NCBI GenBank assembly: GCA_028286835.1
Contig: JAQBQT010000011.1
Coordinates: 71,246 to 129,191 of the forward strand
Reading direction: 5' to 3'
DNA: 57,946 bases
From: Candidatus Parcubacteria bacterium
GTDB taxonomy: Bacteria; Patescibacteriota; Minisyncoccia; Phycocordibacterales; PALSA-1337
Shown piece by piece: positions 8,597-51,126 of this stretch. Under the pieces are notes generated by a model that had not been told where the DNA came from, did not search any database, and worked only from the letters and a program-made list of their open reading frames with translations. Each line of letters opens with the position of its first letter. The stretch's first letter is position 1. A program made the position numbers and the translations under genes.

Positions 8597-9073
8597 CTAG
8601 TTACAACCGGCTACGCCGTTGCTGTTGACAACATCACTCTGATTCGTCTTGCCTGTGGAATCTATGCAGAAGTACGTGGATGCATTCGACTTCATCCTGC
8701 CGCGAATAGCATATCCCGTATTGTTTGGAGCGACAGCAACGAAAAGCGCACCTCCTTGGTTGGTCGCGTCTGCATTGAGCTGGTTCAAAGCTGTGAAGTC
8801 AGGTCCTGTAGTAAGGACACATGTTGCAAACGTTGCCGCGCTGGTGTTGCTAGCAATACACGTTCCAGCTCCGTTCAGGTCAGGGTAACCAAGACCATTG
8901 AAACCAGATTCAATGGCCGTCCTTGCCTGCTGGACATCGGAGATGATGCGAGTGTCGCTGCCCTTGGCGCGAGCCGAATTGAGGGAGACGAGCACGATGG
9001 ACGCCAAGATACCGATGATGGCGATGACGACGAGCAATTCGATAAGAGTGAAACCACGAGTGAGCTTTTTCAT
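8597..9073 (-). CDS. Type IV major pilin candidate A
   Basis: RG/FTLIELLVVIAIIGILASIVL motif, four Cys, own terminator. Confidence 0.92.
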   Translation of the reverse strand: MKKLTRGFTLIELLVVIAIIGILASIVLVSLNSARAKGSDTRIISDVQQARTAIESGFNGLGYPDLNGAGTCIASNTSAATFATCVLTTGPDFTALNQLNADATNQGGALFVAVAPNNTGYAIRGRMKSNASTYFCIDSTGKTNQSDVVNSNGVAGCN

Positions 9074-9212: not shown

Positions 9213-9710
9213 TTAGTTACAACCTGCTACGCCTTTGCTATTAACAACATCGTTCTGATTCGTCTTGCCTGTCGAATCGACGCAGAAGTATATACTTGAA
9301 TTCGAAGAAAGTTTGCCCCTTATAGCATATGAAGTGTTGTTTGATCCATTTTGACCGACAGCAACAAGAATGGCACCTCCTTGGTTGGCCGCGTCTGCAT
9401 TGAGTTGGTTCAAGACTGTGAAGTCAGGTCCTGTCGTAAGGATACATGTTCCAAACGGTGCAGTACTCGTGTTGCTAGCAATACAGGTTCCGGTTCCATT
9501 CAGGTCAGGAAATCCGAAGCCGTTGAAACCGGATTCAAGAGCTGTTCTTGCCTGCTGGACATCGGAGATGATGCGGGCATCCTTGCCTTTGTTCCTCGCT
9601 GAGTTGAGAGAGACGAGGACGATAGAGGCGAGAAGGCCGATGATGGCGATAACGACGAGCAATTCGATAAGAGTGAAACCTTTGGTAAATGCGCTGGTAA
9701 GTTTTTTCAT
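9213..9710 (-). CDS. Type IV major pilin candidate B (paralog of A)
   Basis: KG/FTLIELLVVIAIIGLLASIVL motif. About 27 differences from pilin A over 152 aligned residues. Start at ATG 9710 with TATAAT 10 nt upstream. Confidence 0.92.
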   Translation of the reverse strand: MKKLTSAFTKGFTLIELLVVIAIIGLLASIVLVSLNSARNKGKDARIISDVQQARTALESGFNGFGFPDLNGTGTCIASNTSTAPFGTCILTTGPDFTVLNQLNADAANQGGAILVAVGQNGSNNTSYAIRGKLSSNSSIYFCVDSTGKTNQNDVVNSKGVAGCN

Positions 9711-9751: not shown

Positions 9752-10966
9752 CTAGCTTGTGGATGAAGCTATGCTATAGATCGGCACAAGGACGGCGGCG
9801 AGCAATACGGCCACGCCGGCGCCGAGGCCTACGATCATGGCCGGTTCGATGAGCGACACGAGAGAATCGACAGCCACTGACACCTCCCTATTATAGAAAT
9901 TGGACATGGTCTTCAGGATCTCGCCGACTTCGCCGGCCTCCTCGCCGACCTTCATCATCTGGATCATGATGCCCGGCACTTCCCTGCGGTTGCCGTCGAG
10001 CGACTCGGAAAGCGTCTTGCCTCCCTTCACGGATTCCGTCGCATCATTCAGGATCTGCTGGTACACCTTGTTATCGATGACGGCGGACGTGAGCTGGAGT
10101 GCCTGCACCATTGGGATGCCGGATGAAAGCATCGTATTCATGTTATCCGCGAAGCGGGAGAGGTAGAGCTTCTTGAAGAGAGTATTCACGTACGGGATCT
10201 CGAGCTTGAAGCTGTCGAAGGCTATCTTGCCCCGCGGCGTGCGGATGAAACGGACCAGGAAAAAGCCTGCGACGATGAGCGCGGCAAAAAGGATGAAGCC
10301 GTAGGAGACCAGGAAGTTGCTGATGCCGATGATGACTTTTGTATATACGGGAATGGTCGCGCCGGATTCGAGGAGGATAGGCGTTATCTTCGGGATGACC
10401 ATGGTGAACATGAGGATCATGACCACCACGAACGTGGCGATGACGAAGGCCGGATAGATAAGGGCTCCGCGGACCTTGGAGGTGAGCTCATAGGCGCGGT
10501 CGAGGTAGTCGGCGAGATAAAGGAACGTATCATTGAGCTTGCCTGACTCTTCGCCGGCCTTCACCATGTTCACATAAAAATCAGAGAAGACCTTGGGATG
10601 CTTGGAGAGGGCCTGCGAGATGGAGCTTCCGGCCTGGAGATCGTCGGCGACGACCGCGAGCTTGGATGAAAGGGCGTGATTCTCCGTTTCCGCGCCGAGA
10701 AGGCGGAAGACGCGCAGCGCCGAGATCTGTGCTTCGAAGAGGGTCGAGAGCTGGCGGGACAGGATGACGATGTCCTTCGTCGAAACGCGCTCGAAGAAGC
10801 TGATGTTCATCGACAGGAACGAGCCGCTCTTGCCTGCTTCCTTGACGGAGGTGAGGGCCAGGCCGCGGCGCTGGAGCGAAGAGATCGCGATGTCCACATT
10901 CACGGCATCGATGGAGCCGGTCTTCTTGGCTCCTGTCGTGTCTACGGCTTCATAGTTGAAGAGCAT
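9752..10966 (-). CDS. pilC: Type IV pilus platform protein (T2SSF family)
   Basis: ILSRQLSTLFEA, GEESGKL, ALIYPAFV, MMKVGEEAG, LIEPAMIV. Confidence 0.95.
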   Translation of the reverse strand: MLFNYEAVDTTGAKKTGSIDAVNVDIAISSLQRRGLALTSVKEAGKSGSFLSMNISFFERVSTKDIVILSRQLSTLFEAQISALRVFRLLGAETENHALSSKLAVVADDLQAGSSISQALSKHPKVFSDFYVNMVKAGEESGKLNDTFLYLADYLDRAYELTSKVRGALIYPAFVIATFVVVMILMFTMVIPKITPILLESGATIPVYTKVIIGISNFLVSYGFILFAALIVAGFFLVRFIRTPRGKIAFDSFKLEIPYVNTLFKKLYLSRFADNMNTMLSSGIPMVQALQLTSAVIDNKVYQQILNDATESVKGGKTLSESLDGNRREVPGIMIQMMKVGEEAGEVGEILKTMSNFYNREVSVAVDSLVSLIEPAMIVGLGAGVAVLLAAVLVPIYSIASSTS

Positions 10967-10973
10967 GGCAATA

Positions 10974-12032
10974 TTATATCATCCTCTCGAGCACTTTCGC
11001 ATTCATGGAATTGGTATAAGCGTTCTCTACGGTGATCTCCCCTGCGCGCACGAGCTCGGCAAGAGAGCGGTTGAGGTCGATCATGCCTTCCTGGGAGGAC
11101 GTTTCGATGACGGTGTCTATCTCATGGATGCGGTTCTCACGGATGAGGTTCGAAACGGCGTTATTATTGATGAGGAGCTCGTAGGCCGGAATGAGTCCAC
11201 CAGAAATGCGCGGAATGAGGCGCTGGGAGAATATTCCCGTCATGGAGCCGGCGAGCTGGATGCGGATCTGAGCCTGCTGATCGGCCGGGAATGAGTCGAT
11301 GATGCGGTTTATGGTCTGCGCAGCGTTGTTGGTATGCAAAGTCGACAAGATGAGGTGGCCTGTCTCAGCGGCAGTGACGGCCGTCGATATCGTCGTGATG
11401 TCGCGCATCTCGCCCACCATACAGACGTTGATATCCTCGCGGAACATGGAAACGAGGGCGGCCTCGAATGACGGCGTGTCTATGCGCACTTCGCGCTGGT
11501 CGATGATGGATTTCTTGGAATCGAATTGGAACTCGATCGGGTCTTCGATGGTGAGGATGTGCTCGGTCCTGGTCTGATTGATGATCTCGACCAGGGTCGC
11601 GAGAGTGGTCGTCTTTCCCTGTCCGATCGGACCCACCACCAGGAAGAAGCCCTGCGGCTTTCTGGTGAAGCTCTCGAGGATGGGCGGGAGATTGAGCTCA
11701 TTCAGCGTGCGGATGACCTTCGGGATGAGACGGAGCGCGATGGAGAGCGCGCCCTGGCGATAAAAGACGTTGCCGCGGAATCGGGCCTGCGTCACTGCGT
11801 ATGAAAAATCAGTATCCTTGTTAGCCTTGAGGAGCACTTTGCTTTCCGGCGTGAGGAAGGCGTCTACGAAGCCGAGCATGTCATGTTCGGAGAGGACTGA
11901 CTTCTTGACCAGCGGGATGAGGTTCCCCGTCACGCGGATGATGGGCGGGCGGCCCGTCGCAAGATGGAGATCGGATGCTCCTTCTTTGATCACCAGATTC
12001 ACCAAGTCGTCGATCTCTTTTTTGTAGTCCAT
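10974..12032 (-). CDS. pilT: Type IV pilus retraction ATPase
   Basis: ASDLHL, GPIGQGKTTT Walker A, TIEDPIE, QREV, VGEMRD, AAETGHLILSTLHTN. Confidence 0.95.
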   Translation of the reverse strand: MDYKKEIDDLVNLVIKEGASDLHLATGRPPIIRVTGNLIPLVKKSVLSEHDMLGFVDAFLTPESKVLLKANKDTDFSYAVTQARFRGNVFYRQGALSIALRLIPKVIRTLNELNLPPILESFTRKPQGFFLVVGPIGQGKTTTLATLVEIINQTRTEHILTIEDPIEFQFDSKKSIIDQREVRIDTPSFEAALVSMFREDINVCMVGEMRDITTISTAVTAAETGHLILSTLHTNNAAQTINRIIDSFPADQQAQIRIQLAGSMTGIFSQRLIPRISGGLIPAYELLINNNAVSNLIRENRIHEIDTVIETSSQEGMIDLNRSLAELVRAGEITVENAYTNSMNAKVLERMI

Positions 12033-12036
12033 GGGA

Positions 12037-12423
12037 TTATGCTTTTTTAGCGGCTAATATTTTTTCGACTTCGGCCAGCACCTCTGACGGTATGCTCGTG
12101 GCTTTGACGATGTATCCGTCGACATTGAGCTTCTTGGCCCGGGAGATGTCGTCAGGATTTCCCTGATTCGTGAGCATGACCACCTTCGCATTCGGCGCAA
12201 GCTTCTCCTTCCTGACTGCCGACATGAATTCAAGCCCGTCAGGGCCCGGCATGACGATGTCGACCATCATGATGTCCGGTACGAACCCGTCCCGGAGGAC
12301 CTTGAGGCCGGACTCCATCGAGTCGCCCGTCTTGACGTCGTAGCCCGCCTTGGAGAACTTGAGGGCATACATGTCGAGAAGGAATTTGTCATCGTCAACG
12401 AAGAGGGCTTTTTTAGGCTGCAT
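12037..12423 (-). CDS. Single-domain response regulator (receiver)
   Basis: VDDD acidic pocket, DIVMPG phospho-Asp, LTN and KA conserved residues. No output domain. Confidence 0.92.
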   Translation of the reverse strand: MQPKKALFVDDDKFLLDMYALKFSKAGYDVKTGDSMESGLKVLRDGFVPDIMMVDIVMPGPDGLEFMSAVRKEKLAPNAKVVMLTNQGNPDDISRAKKLNVDGYIVKATSIPSEVLAEVEKILAAKKA

Positions 12424-12441
12424 AAGGATAGTGTACCACTT

Positions 12442-14169
12442 TTACAATTTGTTGACTTCCTCGAGGGGGATGATCTTCTGGAAGGCCTTGATGATCGCGT
12501 CCTCTTTGATGGTTATCATGCCCTTCTGGCGCAGGAGCCTGCTCACTTCTGTCTCGGTGGCGCTTCGGAGGACGGCCTCCTCGACTTCCTTGTCCATGGC
12601 GAACATCTCGAACACGGCCATGCGCCCGCGAGTTCCCTTTGGGGCGGACGGGGTCGGCTTGATGCGGTACAGGGTGTCGCCGAACGGGATGTCCTTCTTG
12701 AACTCTTCCGGCAGATCCTCGAATTGCTTGTCGATCATGGCTTTGATGCTGCCTTCGACTTTGACCGCTTCGGCTGCTTCGGGGACGAGCATGCCCACGA
12801 GGCGCTGAGCGATGCCGAGGACCAAAGTCGGGGCGATCAGATACGGATCGACGCCCATATCGATGAGGCGCGGGATGATGCCGGCGGCGTTGTTGGTGTG
12901 CAAGGTAGAGAATACCAGGTGACCTGTAAGGGCGGCTTGGACGGCGAGCTGGGCGGTCTCCTTATCGCGGATCTCACCCACCATGATGATGTCAGGGTCT
13001 TGGCGCAATGTCGTACGGAGGCCGGAGCTGAAGTCATAGCCGATCTCGGGTCGCACCTGGGATTGCGACACGCCTTCGATCTGATATTCCACCGGGTCTT
13101 CGAGGGAAAGCACGTTCTCGGCCTCGCGATCCATCTCGCTCAGGATGGAATAAAGCGTGGTGGATTTTCCGGAGCCTGTCGGACCGGTAACGAGGATCAT
13201 GCCGTATGGACGGTCGATAGCCTTCCTGAGCATCTCGAGGTTGCGCGGCGAAAGCCCGATCTGGTCGATCTTGCGGACGCCTTTGGCCTGGTCGAGAATA
13301 CGCATCACGACCTTCTCGCCGTAGTAGGCCGGGAATGTGGAGACGCGGAAGTCGACGCGGCGGCCGTCGATGCGCGCGGAGAAGCGGCCGTCCTGCGGCT
13401 TGCGGCGCTCGTCGAGGCGCATATTGGAGAGCACTTTGATGCGGGCGACCACGGCCGAATGCACCTGAGGCGGCAATACGAGCGAGGTGTTGAGCGTGCC
13501 ATCGACGCGGAAGCGCACGCGGATCTTGTCGCGCATGTGCTCGATGTGAACGTCGGACGCTTCCCCTTCCACGGCATATCGGACGATAGTGGCCACGATC
13601 TTGATGACCGGGGCATCCTCGATGATGACCGTGTCCTCTTCCTCCTTGCCCTTCGCGGGTTCGCCCGGCTTGCCTCCCTTCTTCACGTCATCGGTCTCTA
13701 CGGAGAGCTCGGTCTCGAGCTCGGAAAGCGCGCGCGTCACTTCGCCCGTGAGGCCTTTGTACATGCCGAGCACCTTGGTGAAGTCGGCGAGAGTGATGAG
13801 GAAGATCTTGTACGGGATGTTCTTCTTCGCGACAAGGAAGTTGAGTGCGTCGCGCGCCTCCATATTGTCAGGATCGACGATGCCGACCTCAAGCGTGCCC
13901 TCCTTGAGGCCGACCGGCACGAAATGATAGTGCTCCGCGGATTCCTGGGGGATGTATTCAAGGGCTTCGAACGGAACGCCCTCCTCGGTGATGGCGCGCA
14001 CGGGGATATTCAAAAATTCGCCGCGAGCTTCGGTGATCTGCTCGGGCTTGAGCCCGCGGGCCACAAGAACCTCCTCAAGATTGACGCCGCTTCCCGTTGC
14101 TTTGCGGATTTCGCGCAGATCGTCTTTGGTGATGAGGTTTTTTTGTAGGAGTATGTCTAGTACGCTCAT
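12442..14169 (-). CDS. pilB: Type IV pilus assembly ATPase (GspE/PilB)
   Basis: ASDVHIE, RRKPQDGR, GPTGSGKSTT, LEDPVE, RQDPDIIMVGEIRD, LTGHLVFSTLHTN. Confidence 0.96.
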   Translation of the reverse strand: MSVLDILLQKNLITKDDLREIRKATGSGVNLEEVLVARGLKPEQITEARGEFLNIPVRAITEEGVPFEALEYIPQESAEHYHFVPVGLKEGTLEVGIVDPDNMEARDALNFLVAKKNIPYKIFLITLADFTKVLGMYKGLTGEVTRALSELETELSVETDDVKKGGKPGEPAKGKEEEDTVIIEDAPVIKIVATIVRYAVEGEASDVHIEHMRDKIRVRFRVDGTLNTSLVLPPQVHSAVVARIKVLSNMRLDERRKPQDGRFSARIDGRRVDFRVSTFPAYYGEKVVMRILDQAKGVRKIDQIGLSPRNLEMLRKAIDRPYGMILVTGPTGSGKSTTLYSILSEMDREAENVLSLEDPVEYQIEGVSQSQVRPEIGYDFSSGLRTTLRQDPDIIMVGEIRDKETAQLAVQAALTGHLVFSTLHTNNAAGIIPRLIDMGVDPYLIAPTLVLGIAQRLVGMLVPEAAEAVKVEGSIKAMIDKQFEDLPEEFKKDIPFGDTLYRIKPTPSAPKGTRGRMAVFEMFAMDKEVEEAVLRSATETEVSRLLRQKGMITIKEDAIIKAFQKIIPLEEVNKL

Positions 14170-36576: not shown

Positions 36577-37839
36577 ATGAATACCACAGCAATAAAAAAA
36601 GAGGTCCATGTTAGATTTTCAGGAGGTAAAGTGAAACCTTTGATCCTCCTGATGAGTCTAAGTATTTTTGCTTTTTTTATTTTGGTCGGTTTCATCCGCT
36701 CGATTTCTCAAAACGAACCGCCTGCAGTTGTAACCCCGGCCCTCACCTCTACTACGACAACGGCGGCATCGACAACTTTCCCTAGTAAACCTAATCCCCC
36801 AGTAGTCACCCGCCCTACAACACCCGTAACCATAACGCCAAGCGGCCTTGCGGGGATCGGGCATGCAGTAGGAATCTCTGCCGGAGGATCTCTGTCGCGA
36901 ATGAGTCTGTCGGATATGAATGCGTATCTCGACCAAATGTCAGCCCTCGGCGTCACGTGGGTCAGGTTCGATGTCGAGTGGGGCATCGTTCAATATAATT
37001 CACCCAACAATTTCGACTGGAGCAATTTCGATGACCTTGTAAGTGCGATCAACTCCCACCATATGAATGGCCTAGGTATCATCCTTTTCACCCCAGCATG
37101 GGCTCGAAATCCATCCTGTACAGGTGGCGCAAAGTGCCCTCCAAACGATCCTCAACAGTTCGCAACATTCGCTGCTTCCCTCGCAAACCGATACAAAGAC
37201 AAAGGTATCCACGATTGGGAGATCTGGAACGAACCAAATAACTATGATTTTTGGGCGACAAAAACAGACTGCGTCGCATATACGAATCTTCTTAAGGTCA
37301 CATATCCTGCTATAAAGGCTGTTGACCCGCTCGCAGTCATCGTGAGCGGCGGTCTAGCTCCCGAAAATACCGACAACCACAACATATCTCAGATGGACTT
37401 CCTCAGGTGCATCTATGCCAATGGCGGGAAAGAGTATTTCGATGTGTTCGGTGACCACTCATACACATTTCCCTCCCTACCAAGCGATAATAAAACAAAT
37501 ATCTGGGCACAAATGTCTGTCACGTCTCCAAGCCTGCGCAGCATCATGATCGCGAACGGCGATGGCGCAAAAAAGACATGGATCACAGAATTTGGAGTTC
37601 CCACGAATGGCCCTAACTCAAACTGGTATGTAAGCGAAGCTCGACAAGCGCAAATGGTCGTAAGCTCGATGAATCTATACAAGACCTATGACTGGGCAGG
37701 GCCTATATTCTGGTACACGTTGAGAGATAATGGCACGTCAACGAATACAAATGAGAATTTCTTTGGGCTTATACGAGCGGACGGAAGCCTTAAACCTGCT
37801 TATACAACGCTCAAAGATATACTCTCTCACGGAATCTAA
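36577..37839 (+). CDS. Membrane-anchored clan GH-A glycoside hydrolase (GH5/GH39-like)
   Basis: N-terminal TM and P/T linker, WVRFD, TPAWA, WEIWNEPN (acid/base Glu), WITEFG (nucleophile Glu), FGLIR. Confidence 0.85.
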   Translation: MNTTAIKKEVHVRFSGGKVKPLILLMSLSIFAFFILVGFIRSISQNEPPAVVTPALTSTTTTAASTTFPSKPNPPVVTRPTTPVTITPSGLAGIGHAVGISAGGSLSRMSLSDMNAYLDQMSALGVTWVRFDVEWGIVQYNSPNNFDWSNFDDLVSAINSHHMNGLGIILFTPAWARNPSCTGGAKCPPNDPQQFATFAASLANRYKDKGIHDWEIWNEPNNYDFWATKTDCVAYTNLLKVTYPAIKAVDPLAVIVSGGLAPENTDNHNISQMDFLRCIYANGGKEYFDVFGDHSYTFPSLPSDNKTNIWAQMSVTSPSLRSIMIANGDGAKKTWITEFGVPTNGPNSNWYVSEARQAQMVVSSMNLYKTYDWAGPIFWYTLRDNGTSTNTNENFFGLIRADGSLKPAYTTLKDILSHGI

Positions 37840-37898: not shown

Positions 37899-40319
37899 AT
37901 GATGAAACGTATGGCCATTATGGCCATTTATATTTTATGTAGTACGTGTTCGCTGTCTCCTCTCACAAAAAAAGCCGAAGCCTCCACATTCTCTATCGGC
38001 GAACGTGTCTACATAGTAAATACCCTGAGGGTGCATAAGATACCCTCCAATTCCACCGACTCGATAGTCGGCGCGCATCCTGCTGGCAGCTTTGGAACGA
38101 TCATAAGTGGTCCCAAAGTAACATCTGCCTATACCTGGTGGCAGGTAGACTACGATTCAGGCGCAGACGGTTGGAGCGCATCGAATTGGCTCTTTCGTGC
38201 CCCCATCCAAACTATCGCTAAAAAAAATAGCATTGTCTCAAGCACGAATCTTTCAGGCACTATAGGAAATCAAACAGGGAACACTGCTGTGCAAGTCGGA
38301 AATCAAATACAGACCACAGCTAATCTGAAGGTACGTTCTGCTCCATCAGCTAACGGAGCACCCATTGGCAAGCATACTGTCGGGTCCAAAGGGACAGTTA
38401 CAGCAGGGCCAGTCTCAGCGAACGGTTATAAATGGTGGCACATCGAATACAGAGATGGACTATCAGGATGGAGCGCACAAGATTGGCTCGCACCCGCCGC
38501 AAGCTCTGCGCCTGTAATTCCGATCTCCACAGCCGACTCAGCGATGCCATCGACAGCAAATGATACTCCATCATATTCCGGAGAAGGCGGGGGTGGATCT
38601 GCAACACGTGCACCTGTCATACCGACACCACCAGTATCTACAAATACCGGAGGCGGTGGAGGCGGATCAGTACTACCGGCACCTATCATACCGACACCAC
38701 CAGTATCTACAAATACCGGAGGCGGTGGAGGCGGGAATCCATCTATCTCCGCACCGACTCCGACGACCTACACGTTAAATGCATCAAGCGACGTTGGCGG
38801 AACTATTTCTCCAACCGGATCTACAAAGATAAATAGCGGAGCTTCTCAGACATACCTCATCACCGCAGCTAGCGGCAAGAAGATTTCAACTGTCAGCATC
38901 GATGGAAAAGCTCTGTCAGGAACACCTTCAAGCTACGTCTTCTCAAATGTGACCGCAAACCATACCATACATGCTACGTTCGCCGTTTCTACAACAACAC
39001 CACCTTTACAGCTGACAGCGCCGACCATCACATCTTTCAAGGCGGGCACCTCAACGATAACGACTGGCAAATCTACTAGCTTGACCTGGATTGTTACTGG
39101 AACCCCGACGCCATCGATCAGCATCAATCAGGGCATTGGTACCATCATTGGAACAAGCTTGGTTCTGATCTCCCCTACCACTACCAAGGTATATACCCTG
39201 ACCGCATCGAATACGTCTGGCACAAAAACGGCTCAAGTCACCGTCATCGCCATCGCACCCAGCACCAGCACGCCAACCGCCAACGATCAGCCCCCAGCAA
39301 CACCTGCCACTGCCGGATCCAGTGCGGCAGCGCAGATCGGGCACACGGCCGGCATATCGGCGGGATGGCCCCTGTCACAGATGACGCCCGCAGCAATGAA
39401 TGCCTATCTCGATCGGCTTGTCGAACTCAAGGCGACTTGGGTACGGTTCGATATTGATTGGGACCTCATTCAAAAGGATTCGCAGAACGCATTCGACTGG
39501 AGCAAGATAGACAGCTTGGTTGCAGCTATAAACAGCCACCATCTGAGCGGTCTTGGCATACTACAATTCACGCCGGCCTGGGCTCGTAATTCTGCTTGTG
39601 CGAGCGGCAATAAATGTCCGCCGAACAAGTTCGACCAATTCGCGACGTTTGCCGCAGCCGCCGCCACCCGATACAAGGACAAAGGCATTCACACCTGGGA
39701 GATATGGAACGAGCCAAACAATGCCATCTTCTGGGCGCCACGTACTGATTGCGCTGCATATACGAGCCTGCTCAAAATCACGTACACGGCGATCAAAACT
39801 GCTGACCCAGGGGCCGTAGTCTTGAGCGGCGGCTTAGCTCCAGAACCCACTGATACCTACAACACTTCCCAAGCAGATTTCCTTAAGTGTATCTATACGA
39901 ATGGAGGCAAAGAGTATTTCGACGTCTTGGCTGACCACTCATATACATTCCCTGCTCTTCCTTCTGATAACAATACGAACATGTGGGCTCAAATGGCGGC
40001 GACAAACCCGAGCCTACGCAGCATCATGAGCACCAACGGGGATTCACATAAAAAAATGTGGATTACTGAATTCGGCACCCCTACGAATGGTCCTGATTCG
40101 AATACATTTGTTGATGAGGCTCGGCAATCTCTTATGGTCACAAGCGCCATGACTCTCTATAAGACCTATGATTGGGCCGGGCCGATATTCTGGTACACAT
40201 TGAATGACCTTGGTATATCAACGAGCACTATCGAGAACTTCTTCGGATTAATCCGAGCAGATGGAAGCCTAAAGCCAGCATTCACGACTCTCAAAAATAT
40301 CATAAACGCTGGCCTATGA
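37899..40319 (+). CDS. Secreted multidomain glycoside hydrolase: 2x SH3b-like, P/G/T linker, beta-sandwich modules, GH-A catalytic domain
   Basis: Signal peptide (KAEA/S), two ...GP...GY.WW.V.Y..G..GW modules, WEIWNEPN and WITEFG. Catalytic domain is a paralog of the preceding gene. Confidence 0.8.
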   Translation: MMKRMAIMAIYILCSTCSLSPLTKKAEASTFSIGERVYIVNTLRVHKIPSNSTDSIVGAHPAGSFGTIISGPKVTSAYTWWQVDYDSGADGWSASNWLFRAPIQTIAKKNSIVSSTNLSGTIGNQTGNTAVQVGNQIQTTANLKVRSAPSANGAPIGKHTVGSKGTVTAGPVSANGYKWWHIEYRDGLSGWSAQDWLAPAASSAPVIPISTADSAMPSTANDTPSYSGEGGGGSATRAPVIPTPPVSTNTGGGGGGSVLPAPIIPTPPVSTNTGGGGGGNPSISAPTPTTYTLNASSDVGGTISPTGSTKINSGASQTYLITAASGKKISTVSIDGKALSGTPSSYVFSNVTANHTIHATFAVSTTTPPLQLTAPTITSFKAGTSTITTGKSTSLTWIVTGTPTPSISINQGIGTIIGTSLVLISPTTTKVYTLTASNTSGTKTAQVTVIAIAPSTSTPTANDQPPATPATAGSSAAAQIGHTAGISAGWPLSQMTPAAMNAYLDRLVELKATWVRFDIDWDLIQKDSQNAFDWSKIDSLVAAINSHHLSGLGILQFTPAWARNSACASGNKCPPNKFDQFATFAAAAATRYKDKGIHTWEIWNEPNNAIFWAPRTDCAAYTSLLKITYTAIKTADPGAVVLSGGLAPEPTDTYNTSQADFLKCIYTNGGKEYFDVLADHSYTFPALPSDNNTNMWAQMAATNPSLRSIMSTNGDSHKKMWITEFGTPTNGPDSNTFVDEARQSLMVTSAMTLYKTYDWAGPIFWYTLNDLGISTSTIENFFGLIRADGSLKPAFTTLKNIINAGL
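38611..38734 (+). repeat. Intragenic 55-nt direct repeat (period 69 nt)
   Basis: 38611-38665 and 38680-38734 differ at one base and encode P(V/I)IPTPPVSTNTGGGGG twice. Confidence 0.9.
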
Positions 40320-47140: not shown

Positions 47141-47294
47141 AAAATGAAAAACGATTATATGCTTTTGATAAGTCACGAAATTATATCATGGCCGTTTGCC
47201 TTGCGAGATGATATTGACATTAATAACATATTATGGTTGTATTCTAGCAGTTCTTTCAGAATCACAACACACAAACACTCAACCCACAGAGACA

Positions 47295-47840
47295 ATGAAT
47301 GACTTCAGTGATTTTTCAACTGACTTTTCGGATCGTGCTGCATCGGTAAAAACAAAGCTTCCTGTACGATTCCTTGGACCTATTGGCGAAGGAGACGATC
47401 GCGGACGGGAAGCTCTTGAAACGGCCGGAGTAAAATTTCTTGAAACAGTGCCGAACAATTCCCTCTTTCAGCACGTAGAGCTGCCGGCAAACTGGAAGCT
47501 TGTGTACCATCCACGTCACCTCTTCTGGACACACTTGATCGACCATCAGGGTCGCAAGCGTGCCGGGATCTTCAGCAGGAATGGATACAGCGATCCGTAT
47601 GTGCTCGTATCGTGCAGACTGAGTTACAAGCGGACAAGCGACTACGATAACTTCGTTATGTATGTTTCGACAGCAGTGTTCAAAGATGGTCTTGAAATCT
47701 ACACGGTAGCTGAGAATCAGCGGCCTGATAGCACCGAGTCAGAGCGACACACGTTGGCGGAAGATGTCGATGCTCGAGCCCTGGAATGGTTACAGGGAAA
47801 GTACCCAAACTGGCAGGACCCGCGGGCATATTGGATTTAA
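47295..47840 (+). CDS. Hypothetical protein with a phage-like motif set
   Basis: LF..VELPANWK...HLFWTHLIDHQGRKRAGIF and C-terminal WLQGKYPNWQDPRAYW. Start set to ATG 47295. Confidence 0.65.
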   Translation: MNDFSDFSTDFSDRAASVKTKLPVRFLGPIGEGDDRGREALETAGVKFLETVPNNSLFQHVELPANWKLVYHPRHLFWTHLIDHQGRKRAGIFSRNGYSDPYVLVSCRLSYKRTSDYDNFVMYVSTAVFKDGLEIYTVAENQRPDSTESERHTLAEDVDARALEWLQGKYPNWQDPRAYWI

Positions 47841-47871
47841 AATAGCCGACCTTAAAAAATTCGCCCGCAGC

Positions 47872-47908
47872 AACCCTTCGAGACACATTCTCGAGGGGTT
47901 TTTATTTT
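47872..47908 (+). terminator. Intrinsic terminator
   Basis: AACCCTTCGAGA-CACAT-TCTCGAGGGGTT followed by TTTATTTT. Confidence 0.8.
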
Positions 47909-47917
47909 ATTTTGTAT

Positions 47918-47954
47918 AAAAATGCCTCCGTGAGATTTCTCTTACGGAGGCATT
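47918..47954 (-). terminator. Intrinsic terminator (convergent partner)
   Basis: AATGCCTCCGT...ACGGAGGCATT stem followed by TTT on the minus strand. Confidence 0.8.
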
Positions 47955-47965
47955 GGTATTGACGC

Positions 47966-48121
47966 TTAGGTTTTCTTTTCGGCGTCATTGGCTTTTTCGT
48001 CGGCGTCATCCGCCGTTTTCTGTTTTTCGTCGGCATCAGCTCGGGCCACTTCTGCTTCCGCTTCTTTGGTTTCTTTCTGGGCTTGATCCAGATGCTCTTG
48101 TGCTGCTTCTTTATCGGGCAA
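47966..48121 (-). CDS. Small acidic Ala/Glu/Lys-rich helical protein (51 aa), TTG start
   Basis: AAGGAGGTGATT then ACA TTG, giving MPDKEAAQEHLDQAQKETKEAEAEVARADADEKQKTADDADEKANDAEKKT. Has its own terminator. Confidence 0.75.
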   Translation of the reverse strand: MPDKEAAQEHLDQAQKETKEAEAEVARADADEKQKTADDADEKANDAEKKT

Positions 48122-48217
48122 TGTAATCACCTCCTTCAAAATCGAATGGTATAGCAAAACATATCCTGATGCAAAGGCATCATGCAAAACGCATACAAAG
48201 CTATGTGTTCCTATAAT

Positions 48218-48288
48218 GTGGACTTTGTGAGCCAAAGTTGGAACTACCTACCCTCTTGGTTATTTGAAGCGTCCAAAGCGATTTTAAG
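48218..48288 (+). repeat. 71-bp direct repeat, copy 1
   Basis: GTGGACTTTGTGAGCCAAAGTTGGAAC...TATTTGAAGCGTCCAAAGCGATTTTAAG. 61 of 71 positions identical to copy 2 with no gaps. Confidence 0.92.
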
Positions 48289-48299
48289 TTTATCCGTAC

Positions 48300-48340
48300 A
48301 AAAAGAAGCGCCCACCGAAGCGAGGCTTCCGTGGGCGTGA
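48300..48340 (-). terminator. Intrinsic terminator of the Clp N-domain gene
   Basis: CGCCCAC-GGAAGCCTCGCTTCG-GTGGGCG then CTTCTTTTT on the minus strand. Confidence 0.75.
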
Positions 48341-48365
48341 TTATGGTTCAAACTGTTTCTGTCGT

Positions 48366-48812
48366 CTATACTTCGAGTTCCTTTCGGATGAAGCCTGTGA
48401 GCTCATCTCCATATTGCAGATGCAGGTCAACAAAGACTTCTCCAGCGAAAGCGGCAGGATTTTTGACCAGAGCCAGAAGAACGTGTTCAGTCCCGATGTA
48501 GACGTTTTCCTTGATCACCGTTTCCCGCTCTTGCGCGGCGACAACCATAACATCGACAGCGTCTTGGGAAAATCCAATTTCCGCAATACTGTTTTTATTC
48601 GCAATCGCAAACAACTCGCGAGCTTCATTGACAATCGGAGCATTATTTATTTGGTAATGCTTCTCGAGAACCGACCAGGCCACCCCTTGACCAAGCCTAA
48701 CGATTGCCAAAAGGAGGTGGTAGGGTTCAACATTGCTGTCTTTCCTGAGAGCAGCTTTACGGGCCAAAGCGAGCACCTGATGGAGCCGCGGCGTGTAATT
48801 TACTCGGATCAT
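48366..48812 (-). CDS. Stand-alone Clp N-terminal (repeat/R) domain protein
   Basis: YTPRLHQVLALA...VEPYHLLLAIV...GQGVA and FSQDAVDVM...YIGTEHVLLALV: both Clp-N repeats, with no AAA+ domain before the stop. Confidence 0.82.
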   Translation of the reverse strand: MIRVNYTPRLHQVLALARKAALRKDSNVEPYHLLLAIVRLGQGVAWSVLEKHYQINNAPIVNEARELFAIANKNSIAEIGFSQDAVDVMVVAAQERETVIKENVYIGTEHVLLALVKNPAAFAGEVFVDLHLQYGDELTGFIRKELEV

Positions 48813-48878
48813 TGTAAAGGTAAAACTAGTCCGTTTATTTGAAAGAACCATTCGGAAAGATACCGAGGGCTCAAAAAC

Positions 48879-48907
48879 ACCTTACAATTCTGTAGTATGG
48901 TTGTCAA
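48879..48907 (-). promoter_or_regulatory. Sigma70-type promoter for the Clp-N gene
   Basis: TTGACA-N17-TAAGGT. Confidence 0.6.
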
Positions 48908-48912
48908 ATTTG

Positions 48913-48983
48913 GTGGATTTGGTGAGCCAAAGTTGGAACCGGCTACCCTTCTGGATATTTGAAGCGTCCGAAGCGATTATAAG
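48913..48983 (+). repeat. 71-bp direct repeat, copy 2
   Basis: GTGGATTTGGTGAGCCAAAGTTGGAAC...TATTTGAAGCGTCCGAAGCGATTATAAG. On the minus strand, with two flanking bases, it ends ...ATCCACCA. Confidence 0.92.
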
Positions 48984-49132
48984 GGCTCGATCATTTGCAC
49001 ATTAACACTCAGGAACAGGTTAATAACAGTGCTTGGGGTCACATGCTGGGAATGGAGTACGGGTATACAAGTATATGTTATTTAAGTTATTAATAATGAA
49101 TATAAAGACAAACAGGAGTATGCTTTGAAATT

Positions 49133-50197
49133 ATGACTCTTATTATGGGTTTAAACTTCAGCCATAAGTTGTATCTAGCCGGAGATACCCGAGTAACAAG
49201 GACTGAACCAGGGAAAGAGCCCATTTCAATCGACAATATTGCAAAAATCGTCCCGATATGGGGAAAGCAGATACTTGGTCAGGCTTTTTATGACAAGAAC
49301 ACAATTGCATTAGCTGTGGCTGGAGATTTACACTTTGCATCTTTTATTAAGGAAAAGGTAACGAATGCCTTAAACAAAAAAGAACTCAATTCGAACATAA
49401 GGGTTTTTTCCACTCAAATAAAAGAATACTTGAGAACTGCAACTGACGAGTGGCTCCTAGATCATGAATATTCCAATTGCGCTTTAATATTTGCTGGAAT
49501 GAATTTAAGGGCTCGTAAAAAAATCTCACAAGAAAAATTGGATGAATTACTTGCGCAACATGAACAACAACGCGAAAAAGATAAGCCTTCTCGTGATCGT
49601 TTTATCAAAGAAGTACTTCCCACAAATCCTACTTGGCAAGCAATGGAGGCAAAACTACTCCAACAAAGAGGTAAAGGTGTGGAAGAAATGATAAAGGAGG
49701 GTGACATTCCAAAGATTAGTCCCTGGATACAAAAGGCTATTGATGAAAAAACAAATGAAATCGATATGCCTGATTCACTCATCATTGGAATTGAAATAAA
49801 GCCACATCAAGGTATTTTTAACCAGCAGGAGGCCGAATGGGGAGAATTCATTGCTTATGGGGCTGGTTTAACAAAAAATGATCTCAACCAATCAATGATG
49901 GCCGTTCTAGAATTTAGTCACATAAAAGAGGAGGATAACCCTAGGCTTCTTGAAGGGGCTATATTAACAAGTGAAATTTTGGATACTGCAAAAAACAAAA
50001 AAATCGGATCAATAGGAGGAACTGTGCTGTTATACAGCTTAGAAATGGACGGTCAGATGAGGATTTCAGGAAAAGATGTAAAGTTTAACAATCCAGGAGA
50101 ACCGATATCTCTTAAACTAATGGGTCAAGATGTTCCACTAATAATGTTCCATCAATACCCCAAAATCCCTAAGGGTCCTGAGACGATGGAAATGTAG
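49133..50197 (+). CDS. Ntn-hydrolase / proteasome-beta-like protein with a large helical insertion
   Basis: M-T-LIMGL start, LAGDTRVT, AKI, AVAGD, LIFAG, FIAYGAG, SIGGTV. Markedly AT-rich. Confidence 0.65.
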   Translation: MTLIMGLNFSHKLYLAGDTRVTRTEPGKEPISIDNIAKIVPIWGKQILGQAFYDKNTIALAVAGDLHFASFIKEKVTNALNKKELNSNIRVFSTQIKEYLRTATDEWLLDHEYSNCALIFAGMNLRARKKISQEKLDELLAQHEQQREKDKPSRDRFIKEVLPTNPTWQAMEAKLLQQRGKGVEEMIKEGDIPKISPWIQKAIDEKTNEIDMPDSLIIGIEIKPHQGIFNQQEAEWGEFIAYGAGLTKNDLNQSMMAVLEFSHIKEEDNPRLLEGAILTSEILDTAKNKKIGSIGGTVLLYSLEMDGQMRISGKDVKFNNPGEPISLKLMGQDVPLIMFHQYPKIPKGPETMEM

Positions 50198-50288
50198 ATT
50201 GATGACAGAAAAAGCGGCTTTGAAACCGCTATTCTGTCCCTGCCTCTCAGGGTATTTATCCTCCCAGAGGCTCAAAAAGGGGTGCTAG

Positions 50289-50651
50289 TGGAGATGGCGG
50301 GAATCGAACCCGCGTGCAATCGAGGCTGTCCGGACGGTTCTACGACGGTAGTCATCTTTGTGGTTTAGTGAACGGACTCAAAAGAAGACAAAACGCACAT
50401 TCACGATCTCTATGGTTCGGGTAGTAAGGTGAGAAACCCTACTGCCCTACATCCAGGTTATGACATCGCACTAAGGTCAGGATCCCCCTAGATTGACGCG
50501 CACTACTTAAGCGAGTGCGAATGCAAAGTCCTTGGCTCCGAAATACGGAGATACGGTGTTTTTAGCATTTCGAGTTTCCAACGGATTAACGAGTCGCTGG
50601 TGCTCGCGCCGCGCGAACGGAAGCCGGCAATTGTCTATGCCGATCATCCCC
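50289..50651 (-). ncRNA. ssrA: tmRNA
   Basis: 5' GGGGATG pairs with 3' CATCTCC-A with a G3-U70 wobble. T-arm GCGGG-TTCGATT-CCCGC. Internal tag ORF 50566-50507. Adjacent to smpB. Confidence 0.96.
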
Positions 50652-50679: not shown

Positions 50680-51126
50680 CTATCTGTCGTTCATAGCCCT
50701 TCGGGCTTCCCTGGCGGTCTCGCGGTCCTTCGTCGAAGCGCGCTTGTCATGCTGCTTTTTGCCGCGGACCACGGCCACCGAGACTTTCACCAAAGGACCT
50801 TTATTATATATAGAAATTGGCACTATTGTCAAACCGCGGCCCTCCTCGAGATGGGCCAGGCGGTGGATCTCTTTCTTCGTGAGGAGCAGGCGGCGATTCC
50901 TGCGCGGCTCATAGCCTTTCGGCGTGTTCTTTTCCTGATACGGCGGCACGAATACATTCACGGCATACGCCTCTCCTCCGCGGACGATCACATGCGAGCC
51001 GTCGAGCGATCCCTGCCCATTCTTCAGGGACTTCACTTCATGGCCGGAAAGCTCCAAACCCGCCTCGAATGTTTCGAGGATTTCGAAGTTGAAACGGGCC
51101 TTTTTGTAGTCGACTAATGACGTCAT
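50680..51126 (-). CDS. smpB: SsrA-binding protein
   Basis: YKKARFNFEILETFEAGLELSGHEVKSL, RKLLL-like RRLLLTKKEI, VRGKKQHDKR. Confidence 0.97.
   Translation of the reverse strand: MTSLVDYKKARFNFEILETFEAGLELSGHEVKSLKNGQGSLDGSHVIVRGGEAYAVNVFVPPYQEKNTPKGYEPRRNRRLLLTKKEIHRLAHLEEGRGLTIVPISIYNKGPLVKVSVAVVRGKKQHDKRASTKDRETAREARRAMNDR

Follow-up and report, generated by a model that had tools for sequence, protein, structure and literature searches.

In the genome of a Candidatus Parcubacteria bacterium (assembly GCA_028286835.1), two 71-bp direct repeats lie downstream of ssrA, the gene of the transfer-messenger RNA (tmRNA), within the stretch of 57,946 nucleotides (nt) that was analysed here and is called the window (contig JAQBQT010000011.1, positions 71,246 to 129,191, forward strand). 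These repeats are very probably orphaned 3' ends of large serine recombinase (LSR) genes that double as the P arms of the attachment site attP, marking the boundaries of old insertions at ssrA. Comparison with related loci supports the view that they represent the last codons of an LSR gene straddling attP (~24 of them in the window, ~36 in full) and have remained as attR-type scars. An initial annotation, made from the letters of the window, had proposed att-like scars of integration at the 3' end of ssrA, and this proposal is supported by the junction types, the position of the repeat family, and a split LSR island.

Coding signature of the repeats and forms of the recombinase

Repeat 1 and repeat 2 (Table 1) run in the orientation of ssrA and are identical at 61 of 71 positions (86%) in an ungapped alignment with unrelated flanks, as the initial annotation had described them. 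Their shared 18-mer occurs exactly twice in the 58-kb window, against 0.02 occurrences expected by chance. Two mismatches fall within the core-proximal 27 nt and eight within the distal 44 nt. Both copies begin with GTGGA, as does the reverse complement of the tmRNA 3' end, and the match of 9 in 12 bases between them was reproduced. This resemblance to the tmRNA consists of a 5-nt core and four of the next seven bases; the repeats are not tmRNA-derived and hold no T-arm. No tRNA or tmRNA fragment was detected in the repeats, which share only the core TCCAC with ssrA.

Relatives were gathered as SmpB-anchored loci from species-representative genomes, supplemented with metagenome contigs. The SmpB-anchored loci place the organism near Paceibacteria/Taylorbacteria within the Patescibacteria and share the gene order IF3-PLD-smpB-ssrA-…-ftsH. 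About 16 further copies of the repeat family were found in related Paceibacteria contigs. A profile of the two window copies retrieved homologues in L008, L010, L011 (two copies), L012, L013, and L017, and L091-L099 came from scanning metagenome contigs for the family core; L087 also has two copies. Wherever the tmRNA gene is present on the same contig, all copies sit 0.4-5.2 kb downstream of ssrA on the same strand, and a match to a recombinase C-terminus was found in L100. The interval between ssrA and ftsH is a variable hotspot among relatives (1.26 to 6.6 kb), the closest of which, L007, has no island there. The core of the window-type repeat, GAGCCAAAGTTGGAACNNNCTACCC, had no match in the genome or metagenome contig collections, and the window subfamily, with LPxW in place of LYPW, is unique so far. 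Additionally, viral contigs scanned with the element and with the LSR protein P0079 gave no matches.

The peptides that the initial annotation had read from the plus strand of both copies were recovered as given, and its suspicion of a coding-end remnant is upheld by a coding signature pointing to an LSR C-terminal tail and by an intact gene in L100. Ten ungapped copies were tested in the frame set by GTG GAC, on the strand opposite to ssrA. This frame contains no stop in any of the ten, and the other five frames contain 3-19. Pairwise diversity is highest at codon position 3 (0.277) and lower at position 1 (0.165) and position 2 (0.105; permutation p=0.009), and synonymous variation between loci is seen in the Ser, Leu, Val, and Glu codons. 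Most relatives remain conserved as far as a common stop after ~36 codons, which gives the tail VDLVSQSWNQLYPWVFExSEAIVGVRG[YMF]EK.L.FA before the stop. An exhaustive profile search with this tail returned 70 clusters of short predicted proteins (clustered at 50% identity), nearly all of which are orphans of 29-177 aa with the motif at the C-terminal end and N-terminal parts that are unrelated and variable in length. A word-indexed protein search with a chimeric query of LSR end plus tail gave fragments only, and the exhaustive profile search was needed to reach P0079.

The latter protein, encoded on L100, is an N-truncated LSR with a Zn_ribbon_recom domain, in which recombinase and tail are joined intact; it ends …NRKSGFETAHLSLPLRVFALPEAQNSLL/VDVTRNQWNQLQDWVFQSSQAILGLRSLAGAT followed by a stop (slashes here and below mark the junction at the core). 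Its body is 51% identical to the enzyme of L013, and its tail agrees with that of L096 at 14 of 26 positions when aligned by eye. As the tails are about as diverged as the bodies, the tail evolves as part of the protein. P0008 (L087) is a fusion of LSR remnant and tail, forming the inner P-core-P' junction within a two-unit array, and other fragments show the integrated form …AQK..L/VEM(P/G)GIEP….

The split form is found in the L013/L096 island, where a 526-aa LSR is encoded on the reverse strand beside the tmRNA gene. It carries Resolvase (PF00239, 1.9e-21) and Zn_ribbon_recom (PF13408, 2e-8) domains, and is similar to the catalytic N-terminal domain of the TP901-1 integrase (3.7e-12). The gene has no stop before ssrA and reads …KLTYNRKSGFETAILSLPLRVFTLPEAQKGSL/VEMPGIEPGCNR… (…QKGSL/VEMPGIEP…) into the antisense tmRNA. 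Its tail lies at the far island end, 3.7 kb off, and keeps the frame set by the core; if the island closed into a circle there, it would encode a recombinase ending …QKGSL-VDLVSQSWNQLYPWVFEASEAIVGVRGFEKELVTV and then a stop. Runs of N in the public Taylorbacteria scaffold L013 (14655-14676 and ~12225) hit the element and the LSR N-terminus, and the metagenome contig L096 represents the same island without gaps. This LSR is carried only by the L013/L096/L099 islands.

The window retains the end of such a gene. By tblastn, 50204-50341 matches the C-terminus of the L013 LSR at 78% identity over 46 aa (E=3e-17), and the remnant proper comprises 28 codons (50204-50287) reading …DRKSGFETAILSLPLRVFILPEAQKGVL/VEMAGIEP…, in frame with GTG GAG of antisense ssrA. 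At the DNA level, all 90 nt from the stop of the neighbouring open reading frame (ORF), which encodes a protein of Ntn-hydrolase fold, to the tmRNA end show homology to the 3' ends of the LSR genes in L013, L100, and L087. Beyond these 28 codons, tblastn with the L013 LSR detected no LSR sequence in the window. The statement of the initial annotation that the window holds no recombinase is thus right for the LSR body and wrong for its 3' end.

Two side observations concern other serine recombinases. L015 encodes at ~10894-12500 a different, 534-aa LSR-like ORF that is 23% identical to the L013 LSR and abuts the tmRNA 3' end; ssrA may thus be used by several lineages of serine recombinases in the clade. 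Furthermore, P0010 and P0011 are LSR-family fragments ending …LSLPLRVFTLPEEQKMFL/VGDRGVEPLTS and …EAVESHV/VLPVGIEPTS, respectively. Both resemble 3' ends of tRNAs read in antisense, a hint at relatives with tRNA genes as integration targets, which is unusual for serine recombinases.

Attachment-site junctions and the proposed integration cycle

All four junction types (attP, attB, attL, and attR) were recovered, and they share the core GTGGA. The same core is present at the tmRNA ends, in both window repeats, in the attP of L100, and at the inner junction of L087. In four loci the P' homology stops at CTA/GTGGA, beyond which lies either tmRNA (attL) or tail (attP), and the conserved block of the repeat family ends equally sharply at …GTCCAC. 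On the ssrA strand, the core takes in the final 3 nt of the acceptor stem, followed by the discriminator A and the first C of CCA; the tmRNA therefore stays intact after integration. The tmRNA 3' end carrying the core reads ...CATCTCCAC/TA. Since the genomic end is …CTCCAC-TA (50286-50292), with only the first C of CCA encoded, the 3' end of this tmRNA must be completed enzymatically; the full CCA is encoded in ssrA of several relatives. This tmRNA was missed by ARAGORN and found, as a complete one, by Rfam.

The flank behind the core of repeat 2, CAAATTTGACAACC, resembles the flank that follows the tmRNA in L011, L012, and the island-free L007 (TCCAC/TTGACG). The junction at repeat 2 fits an attR site made of P arm, core, and host-type flank, as judged from these alignments. 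In general, the flanks after tmRNA ends and after elements are alike, often with TTGACA within 8 nt of the core. Moreover, the distance of GGTTC from the core end is 28 nt in every P arm, the otherwise divergent one of L100 included, and 23 nt in the tmRNA T-loop. Rutherford et al. (2013, PMC3783163) showed for LSR sites that attB has the motif for the zinc-ribbon domain 5 bp nearer the centre than attP does, and the 5-bp offset of GGTTC would match this geometry, a supportive but not proven correspondence. Given this spacing, the WNQ codons of the tail may carry a constraint at the DNA level besides the one at the protein level. The right arms show no clear symmetry, and a comparison of P and P' arms by eye for dyad symmetry gave nothing convincing. 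The terminator hairpin of ssrA (50213-50230, minus strand; AGCGGTTTCAAAGCCGCT + TTTTCTGT) falls within the RKSGFETA codons of the remnant and is kept in all four P' arms (window, L013, L100, and L087). Thus, the mobile element supplies the tmRNA terminator after integration.

These elements can be arranged into a putative cycle. On the free circle, the LSR gene would cross attP, its body ending in …GFETAxLSLPLRVFxLPEAQxxxL before the core GTGGA, and the circle-form protein would finish in a ~36-residue tail, VDLVSQSWNQLYPWVFExSEAIVG…, up to the stop. Integration, presumably catalysed by the LSR, would target the very end of ssrA, where the core reads TCCAC on the ssrA strand, with the crossover inside the 5-nt core and the tmRNA unharmed. 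The LSR body and P' arm would then adjoin ssrA as attL, the gene running into antisense tmRNA, and the original tail would be stranded at the far island end in an attR composed of P arm, core, and host flank. Such a tail swap may tune the activity of the recombinase.

Read on the ssrA strand, the order in the window is ssrA, core, P' (the LSR remnant), Ntn cargo gene, P-core (repeat 2), Clp_N gene, P-core (repeat 1), and acidic ORF. Under the proposed cycle this would be an attL with an LSR remnant, a Ntn unit closed by repeat 2, and a Clp_N unit closed by repeat 1, the recombinase having been lost. The ssrA-proximal unit would have decayed in place, keeping P' and P and losing the recombinase body. 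Its predicted excision-circle junction (P-core-P') would read …GGCTCACCAAATCCAC/TAGCACCCCTTTTTGAGCC…, and the restored attB would read …CGCCATCTCCAC/CAAATTTGACAACC…. Logan contigs of run SRR13312974 are 100% identical to the window and break within repeat 2 (48971-48974) and, with a 30-nt overlap equal to k-1, where ssrA ends in the core (50289-50318); these breaks may reflect alternative junctions in the sampled population.

Origin of the arrays and competing explanations

Tandem arrays of two units are present in the window, L011, and L087, and none of their units contains an LSR. All three of these arrays hold one gene per interval, as do most loci with a single copy (L008, L010, L012, and L017). 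For the window, this confirms the earlier count of one gene between successive sites, namely the Ntn protein, Clp_N, and the acidic ORF. Tail-only loci usually have one small gene between ssrA and the tail, with no P' arm by ssrA. Among the genomes compared, no cargo genes were shared. A stretch of 158 nt occurs twice in L017, once behind the tmRNA end and once behind that of the element (94% identity). The same locus has a 168-nt direct repeat (10845-11012 and 11658-11825, 94%), each copy of which ends in a pseudo tmRNA 3' end, …CGATTCCTCCCATCTCCAC.

Such layouts could result from accretion. An LSR island might excise via a more distal attR and carry an older unit along, the composite would re-integrate elsewhere, and the LSR island would later excise precisely, leaving the unit behind as ssrA-core-B'type-gene-P-core-B'. 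On the present analysis, accretion combined with cis-mobilisation, a route already put forward for the Dehalococcoides islands, would explain the one-gene arrays at least as well as integron-like capture.

Several points weigh against reading the repeats as recombinase tails left at insertion boundaries. The link between LSR and tail rests on one intact island type (L013/L096/L099) and on the 1.2-kb, attP-form contig L100. About 14 other loci have tails without an LSR, most of them also without a P' arm beside ssrA, and simple integration followed by decay does not explain these. Furthermore, canonical LSRs recombine attP with attB only, so that a further step is required to produce tandem arrays. 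In the window, the copies themselves are decaying, as they are truncated to 23-24 of ~36 tail codons with differing ends, and their codon differences are mostly non-synonymous (six, with one synonymous). Finally, the case is built by comparing sequences.

The alternatives were weighed against the same observations. An integron-like cassette platform, in which units of promoter-type flank, gene, and P tail would be captured singly at the ssrA core by an LSR acting in trans, with the tail DNA kept as a recombinase-binding half-site, would account for the single gene per interval, the like junctions behind tmRNA ends and elements with their nearby TTGACA, the 158 nt shared by both ends in L017, and the better preservation of the core-nearest 27 nt. 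We nevertheless consider it unlikely: no cassette gene is common to different genomes, and no circular cassette junction was seen. Moreover, the platform needs a pairing of attB with an attR-like site that canonical LSRs do not perform (PMC3783163), and accretion followed by precise excision of an LSR island yields the same layout. Less probable still is the idea that the repeats are independent small genes on the plus strand, encoding ~30-50 aa and kept for their own function. The open frame and codon-position pattern, a GTG or ATG at the conserved boundary in most copies, and the 70 clusters of short predicted proteins containing the motif would be in keeping with it. However, no conserved Shine-Dalgarno (SD) sequence or promoter is present upstream, the boundary coincides with the att core, and the window copies break off after codon 23-24. 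The motif is always C-terminal behind unrelated N-terminal parts, for which this reading was judged unlikely; in P0079 it is the end of a genuine LSR, and in P0008 it stands behind an LSR remnant.

A third alternative sees in the repeats a structured RNA or a cis-regulatory leader, encoded on the ssrA strand and placed upstream of Clp_N and the acidic ORF, or else a tRNA-like piece of tmRNA displaced in the manner of tyrosine-integrase islands; it has the smallest chance of being correct. It would find some footing in the placement of both copies 5' of minus-strand genes, in the match of the core to the tmRNA end, and in the T-arm-like hairpin that can be drawn for copy 2, which ends UCCA-CCA. 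That hairpin, put forward in the initial annotation, is not kept in copy 1 or in the family. RNAalifold on the family alignment gave -2.78 kcal/mol and seven weak pairs with no compensatory change, and the structured-RNA reading was rejected on this result. Rfam at E<=10 returned only noise for the repeats, with no tRNA or tmRNA fragment. Variation follows the codon positions of the opposite strand. In addition, identity to the tmRNA end does not go beyond the core and four of seven bases, and the downstream promoters lie at varying distances. Orphaned LSR 3' ends remain the preferred reading of the repeats. A more far-reaching possibility, which we regard as doubtful, is a serine-recombinase gene-capture platform at ssrA in Patescibacteria. 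Its LSR would be complete only on the circle, its tail would be exchanged for antisense-tmRNA codons as a switch of activity or directionality, and LSR-less single-gene units would be accreted, shuffled, and mobilised at the 5-nt core. If true, it would represent a functional analogue of integrons based on another recombinase family.

Window layout, known counterparts, and significance

Table 1. Features between ssrA and the ftsH side of the window (window coordinates)
Feature	Position	Strand	Basis
smpB, directly upstream of ssrA	50680-51126	-	SmpB Pfam 5.7e-46
ssrA (tmRNA gene)	50286..50651	-	Rfam RF00023, 94.7 bits, E=1.1e-35
Common att core TCCAC (GTGGA on +)	50288..50292	-	Junction table; P' homology end at CTA/GTGGA
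Putative P' arm of attL, 3' remnant of LSR gene	50198..50287	+	tblastn, in-frame translation, DNA alignment
Ntn-hydrolase-fold cargo gene, ssrA-proximal unit, convergent with ssrA	49133..50197	+	AF2, Foldseek
Repeat 2, probable orphaned LSR tail VDLVSQSWNRLPFWIFEASEAII, P arm + core (attR-type), distal boundary of Ntn unit	48913..48983	+	
Clp_N promoter-like site TTGACA-17-TAAGGT	48879..48907	-	Read from sequence; B'-type flank
Clp_N-domain protein, sole gene between repeat 2 and repeat 1	48366..48812	-	Pfam PF02861, 1.4e-10
Terminator of Clp_N gene	48309-48324		Terminator scan
Repeat 1, probable second orphaned LSR tail VDFVSQSWNYLPSWLFEASKAIL, P arm + core	48218..48288	+	
53-aa acidic ORF after repeat 1, SD GGAGGTG, TTG start	47966..48127	-	
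Bidirectional terminator 3' of acidic ORF	47872-47958		Terminator scan
Low-GC variable region from ssrA to conserved LiaF-TM/FtsH backbone	47177..50285		GC profile, synteny

The variable region between ssrA and the conserved backbone has a GC content of 0.38-0.51 vs 0.55-0.63 on either side, and the Ntn-fold gene itself is at 0.38. The promoter-like site of the Clp_N gene begins 5 nt past the core of repeat 2 and was not flagged by the consensus scan because its -10 element is weak. Its -35 element TTGACAAC is kept upstream of a 73%-identical Clp_N homologue on L005, where the repeat element is undetectable although the promoter is conserved; therefore, the context of this homologue provides no boundary test. 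Protein family searches gave no family match for the acidic ORF.

The label "Ntn" given in the initial annotation is supported by structure prediction. The AF2 model of the protein (pLDDT 84) matches 20S proteasome beta subunits and Anbu in Foldseek with probability 1.0, and the invariant columns of the family include Thr2, Asp18, and Lys38; the product is thus predicted to have a proteasome beta/Anbu-like Ntn-hydrolase fold. Homologues 29-52% identical occur in other Patescibacteria (L103, 6001-7086; L101, 6001-7077). The one in L103 is convergent with ssrA at ~100 nt from its 3' end, without LSR remnant or tail, and the one in L101 overlaps an HTH_3 gene near a tyrosine integrase. Their positions at ssrA and by an integrase make this a recurrent mobile cargo gene.

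Elsewhere in the window, two more pairs of long direct repeats are present (8598-9023 and 9214-9648, 78-81%; 37249-37548 and 39729-40028, 71%), which are probably tandem paralogous genes unrelated to the repeats at ssrA. The ftsH homologue is split by ~1.3 kb near residue ~260 in L007 (8346-9643) and L025 (12772-14066), which could be an intein or another insertion; the ftsH gene of the window lacks this interruption.

The closest described system is that of the ssrA-specific genomic islands (ssrA-GIs) of Dehalococcoides with their LSR DsiB (McMurdie et al. 2011, PMC3146451). There, tandem islands lie immediately downstream of ssrA, and a conserved sequence adjoins the repeat at the distal boundary. 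The dsiB gene is on the reverse strand next to attL, which its 3' end overlaps, and continues without a stop into ssrA or the adjacent island. Integration modules are missing from many units, for which the authors proposed cis-mobilisation and accretion, and they conjectured that a full-length recombinase may exist on the circular element only (PMC3146451). In the window, too, the islands directly follow ssrA and share its orientation, with ssrA and a repeated element as their boundaries, and tandem units without an integration module occur in the window, L011, and L087. In L013/L096, an LSR gene next to attL likewise runs with its 3' end into ssrA, and the window has a remnant of 28 codons in this position and frame. 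On the other hand, the hosts are Patescibacteria (Paceibacteria/Taylorbacteria), the units measure ~0.4-3.7 kb and often have a single gene, and no DsiA/ParB/Mom module is found. Instead of a 20-bp ssrA repeat made in the T-loop, a 5-nt core is shared at the extreme 3' end. In contrast to DsiB, whose C-termini are reported as divergent, the displaced tail is conserved and carries a coding signature. The likeness to DsiB rests on layout; what is established for the present LSR is its domain content and the N-terminal similarity to TP901-1. As ssrA-integrating LSR islands are already described in Dehalococcoides, the Patescibacteria form with its conserved coding tail is a variant of them.

Compared with phage-type LSRs (A118/LI, TP901-1, Bxb1, and phiC31; PMC3783163), the enzyme has the same Resolvase and zinc-ribbon domains and, with 526 aa, falls in the range of ~450-700 aa. 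Its sites resemble theirs in the short core, the hybrid attL and attR without long direct repeats, and possibly the GGTTC motif, whose spacing from the core is 5 bp larger in the P arm than in the B arm. They differ in the tmRNA target, the recombinase gene that itself crosses attP, and the tandem site arrays. Serine integrases are not known to target tRNA-type genes according to the Islander paper (PMC4383910). Unlike in the tyrosine-integrase islands with the Islander signature, the repeat beyond the core is unrelated to the 3' part of the tmRNA and appears to encode an LSR tail. As in integrons, an array has been built up at one fixed chromosomal site from units that mostly hold a single gene and end in a conserved element of ~70 nt. 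However, the recombinase linked with the family is a serine and not a tyrosine enzyme like IntI, and no attI or Pc platform is apparent. Moreover, the element is in all likelihood a coding remnant without the folded hairpin of an attC site, as the weak consensus fold without covariation indicates.

Division of a recombinase gene upon integration has precedents among tyrosine recombinases. The SSV-type integrases of Sulfolobus viruses are partitioned into N- and C-terminal parts on integration, and intP of the Myxococcus phage Mx8 holds its own attP and has its 3' end changed. Here, too, integration would split the recombinase coding sequence and leave fragments at the island borders, but the enzyme is a serine recombinase and only the last ~36 codons would be exchanged.

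No paper on such elements in Patescibacteria was found in the literature. The present reading would account for a widespread class of orphan "hypothetical small proteins" of Patescibacteria, with 70 clusters or more at 50% identity, as split-off recombinase tails, and it would provide in the tail a simple sequence signature of island borders for mapping mobile DNA in reduced genomes. It would also extend serine-recombinase integration at ssrA beyond Dehalococcoides, and P0010 and P0011 suggest tRNA targets as well, contrary to the usual view that tRNA genes are used by tyrosine recombinases only. Compact LSRs with a universally conserved target, the tmRNA 3' end, could be of interest to genome engineers. 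Especially, a conserved and selected tail would lend concrete support to the suggestion of 2011 that the recombinase is full-length only on the circle, and control of integration versus excision by the tail swap may now be tested directly.

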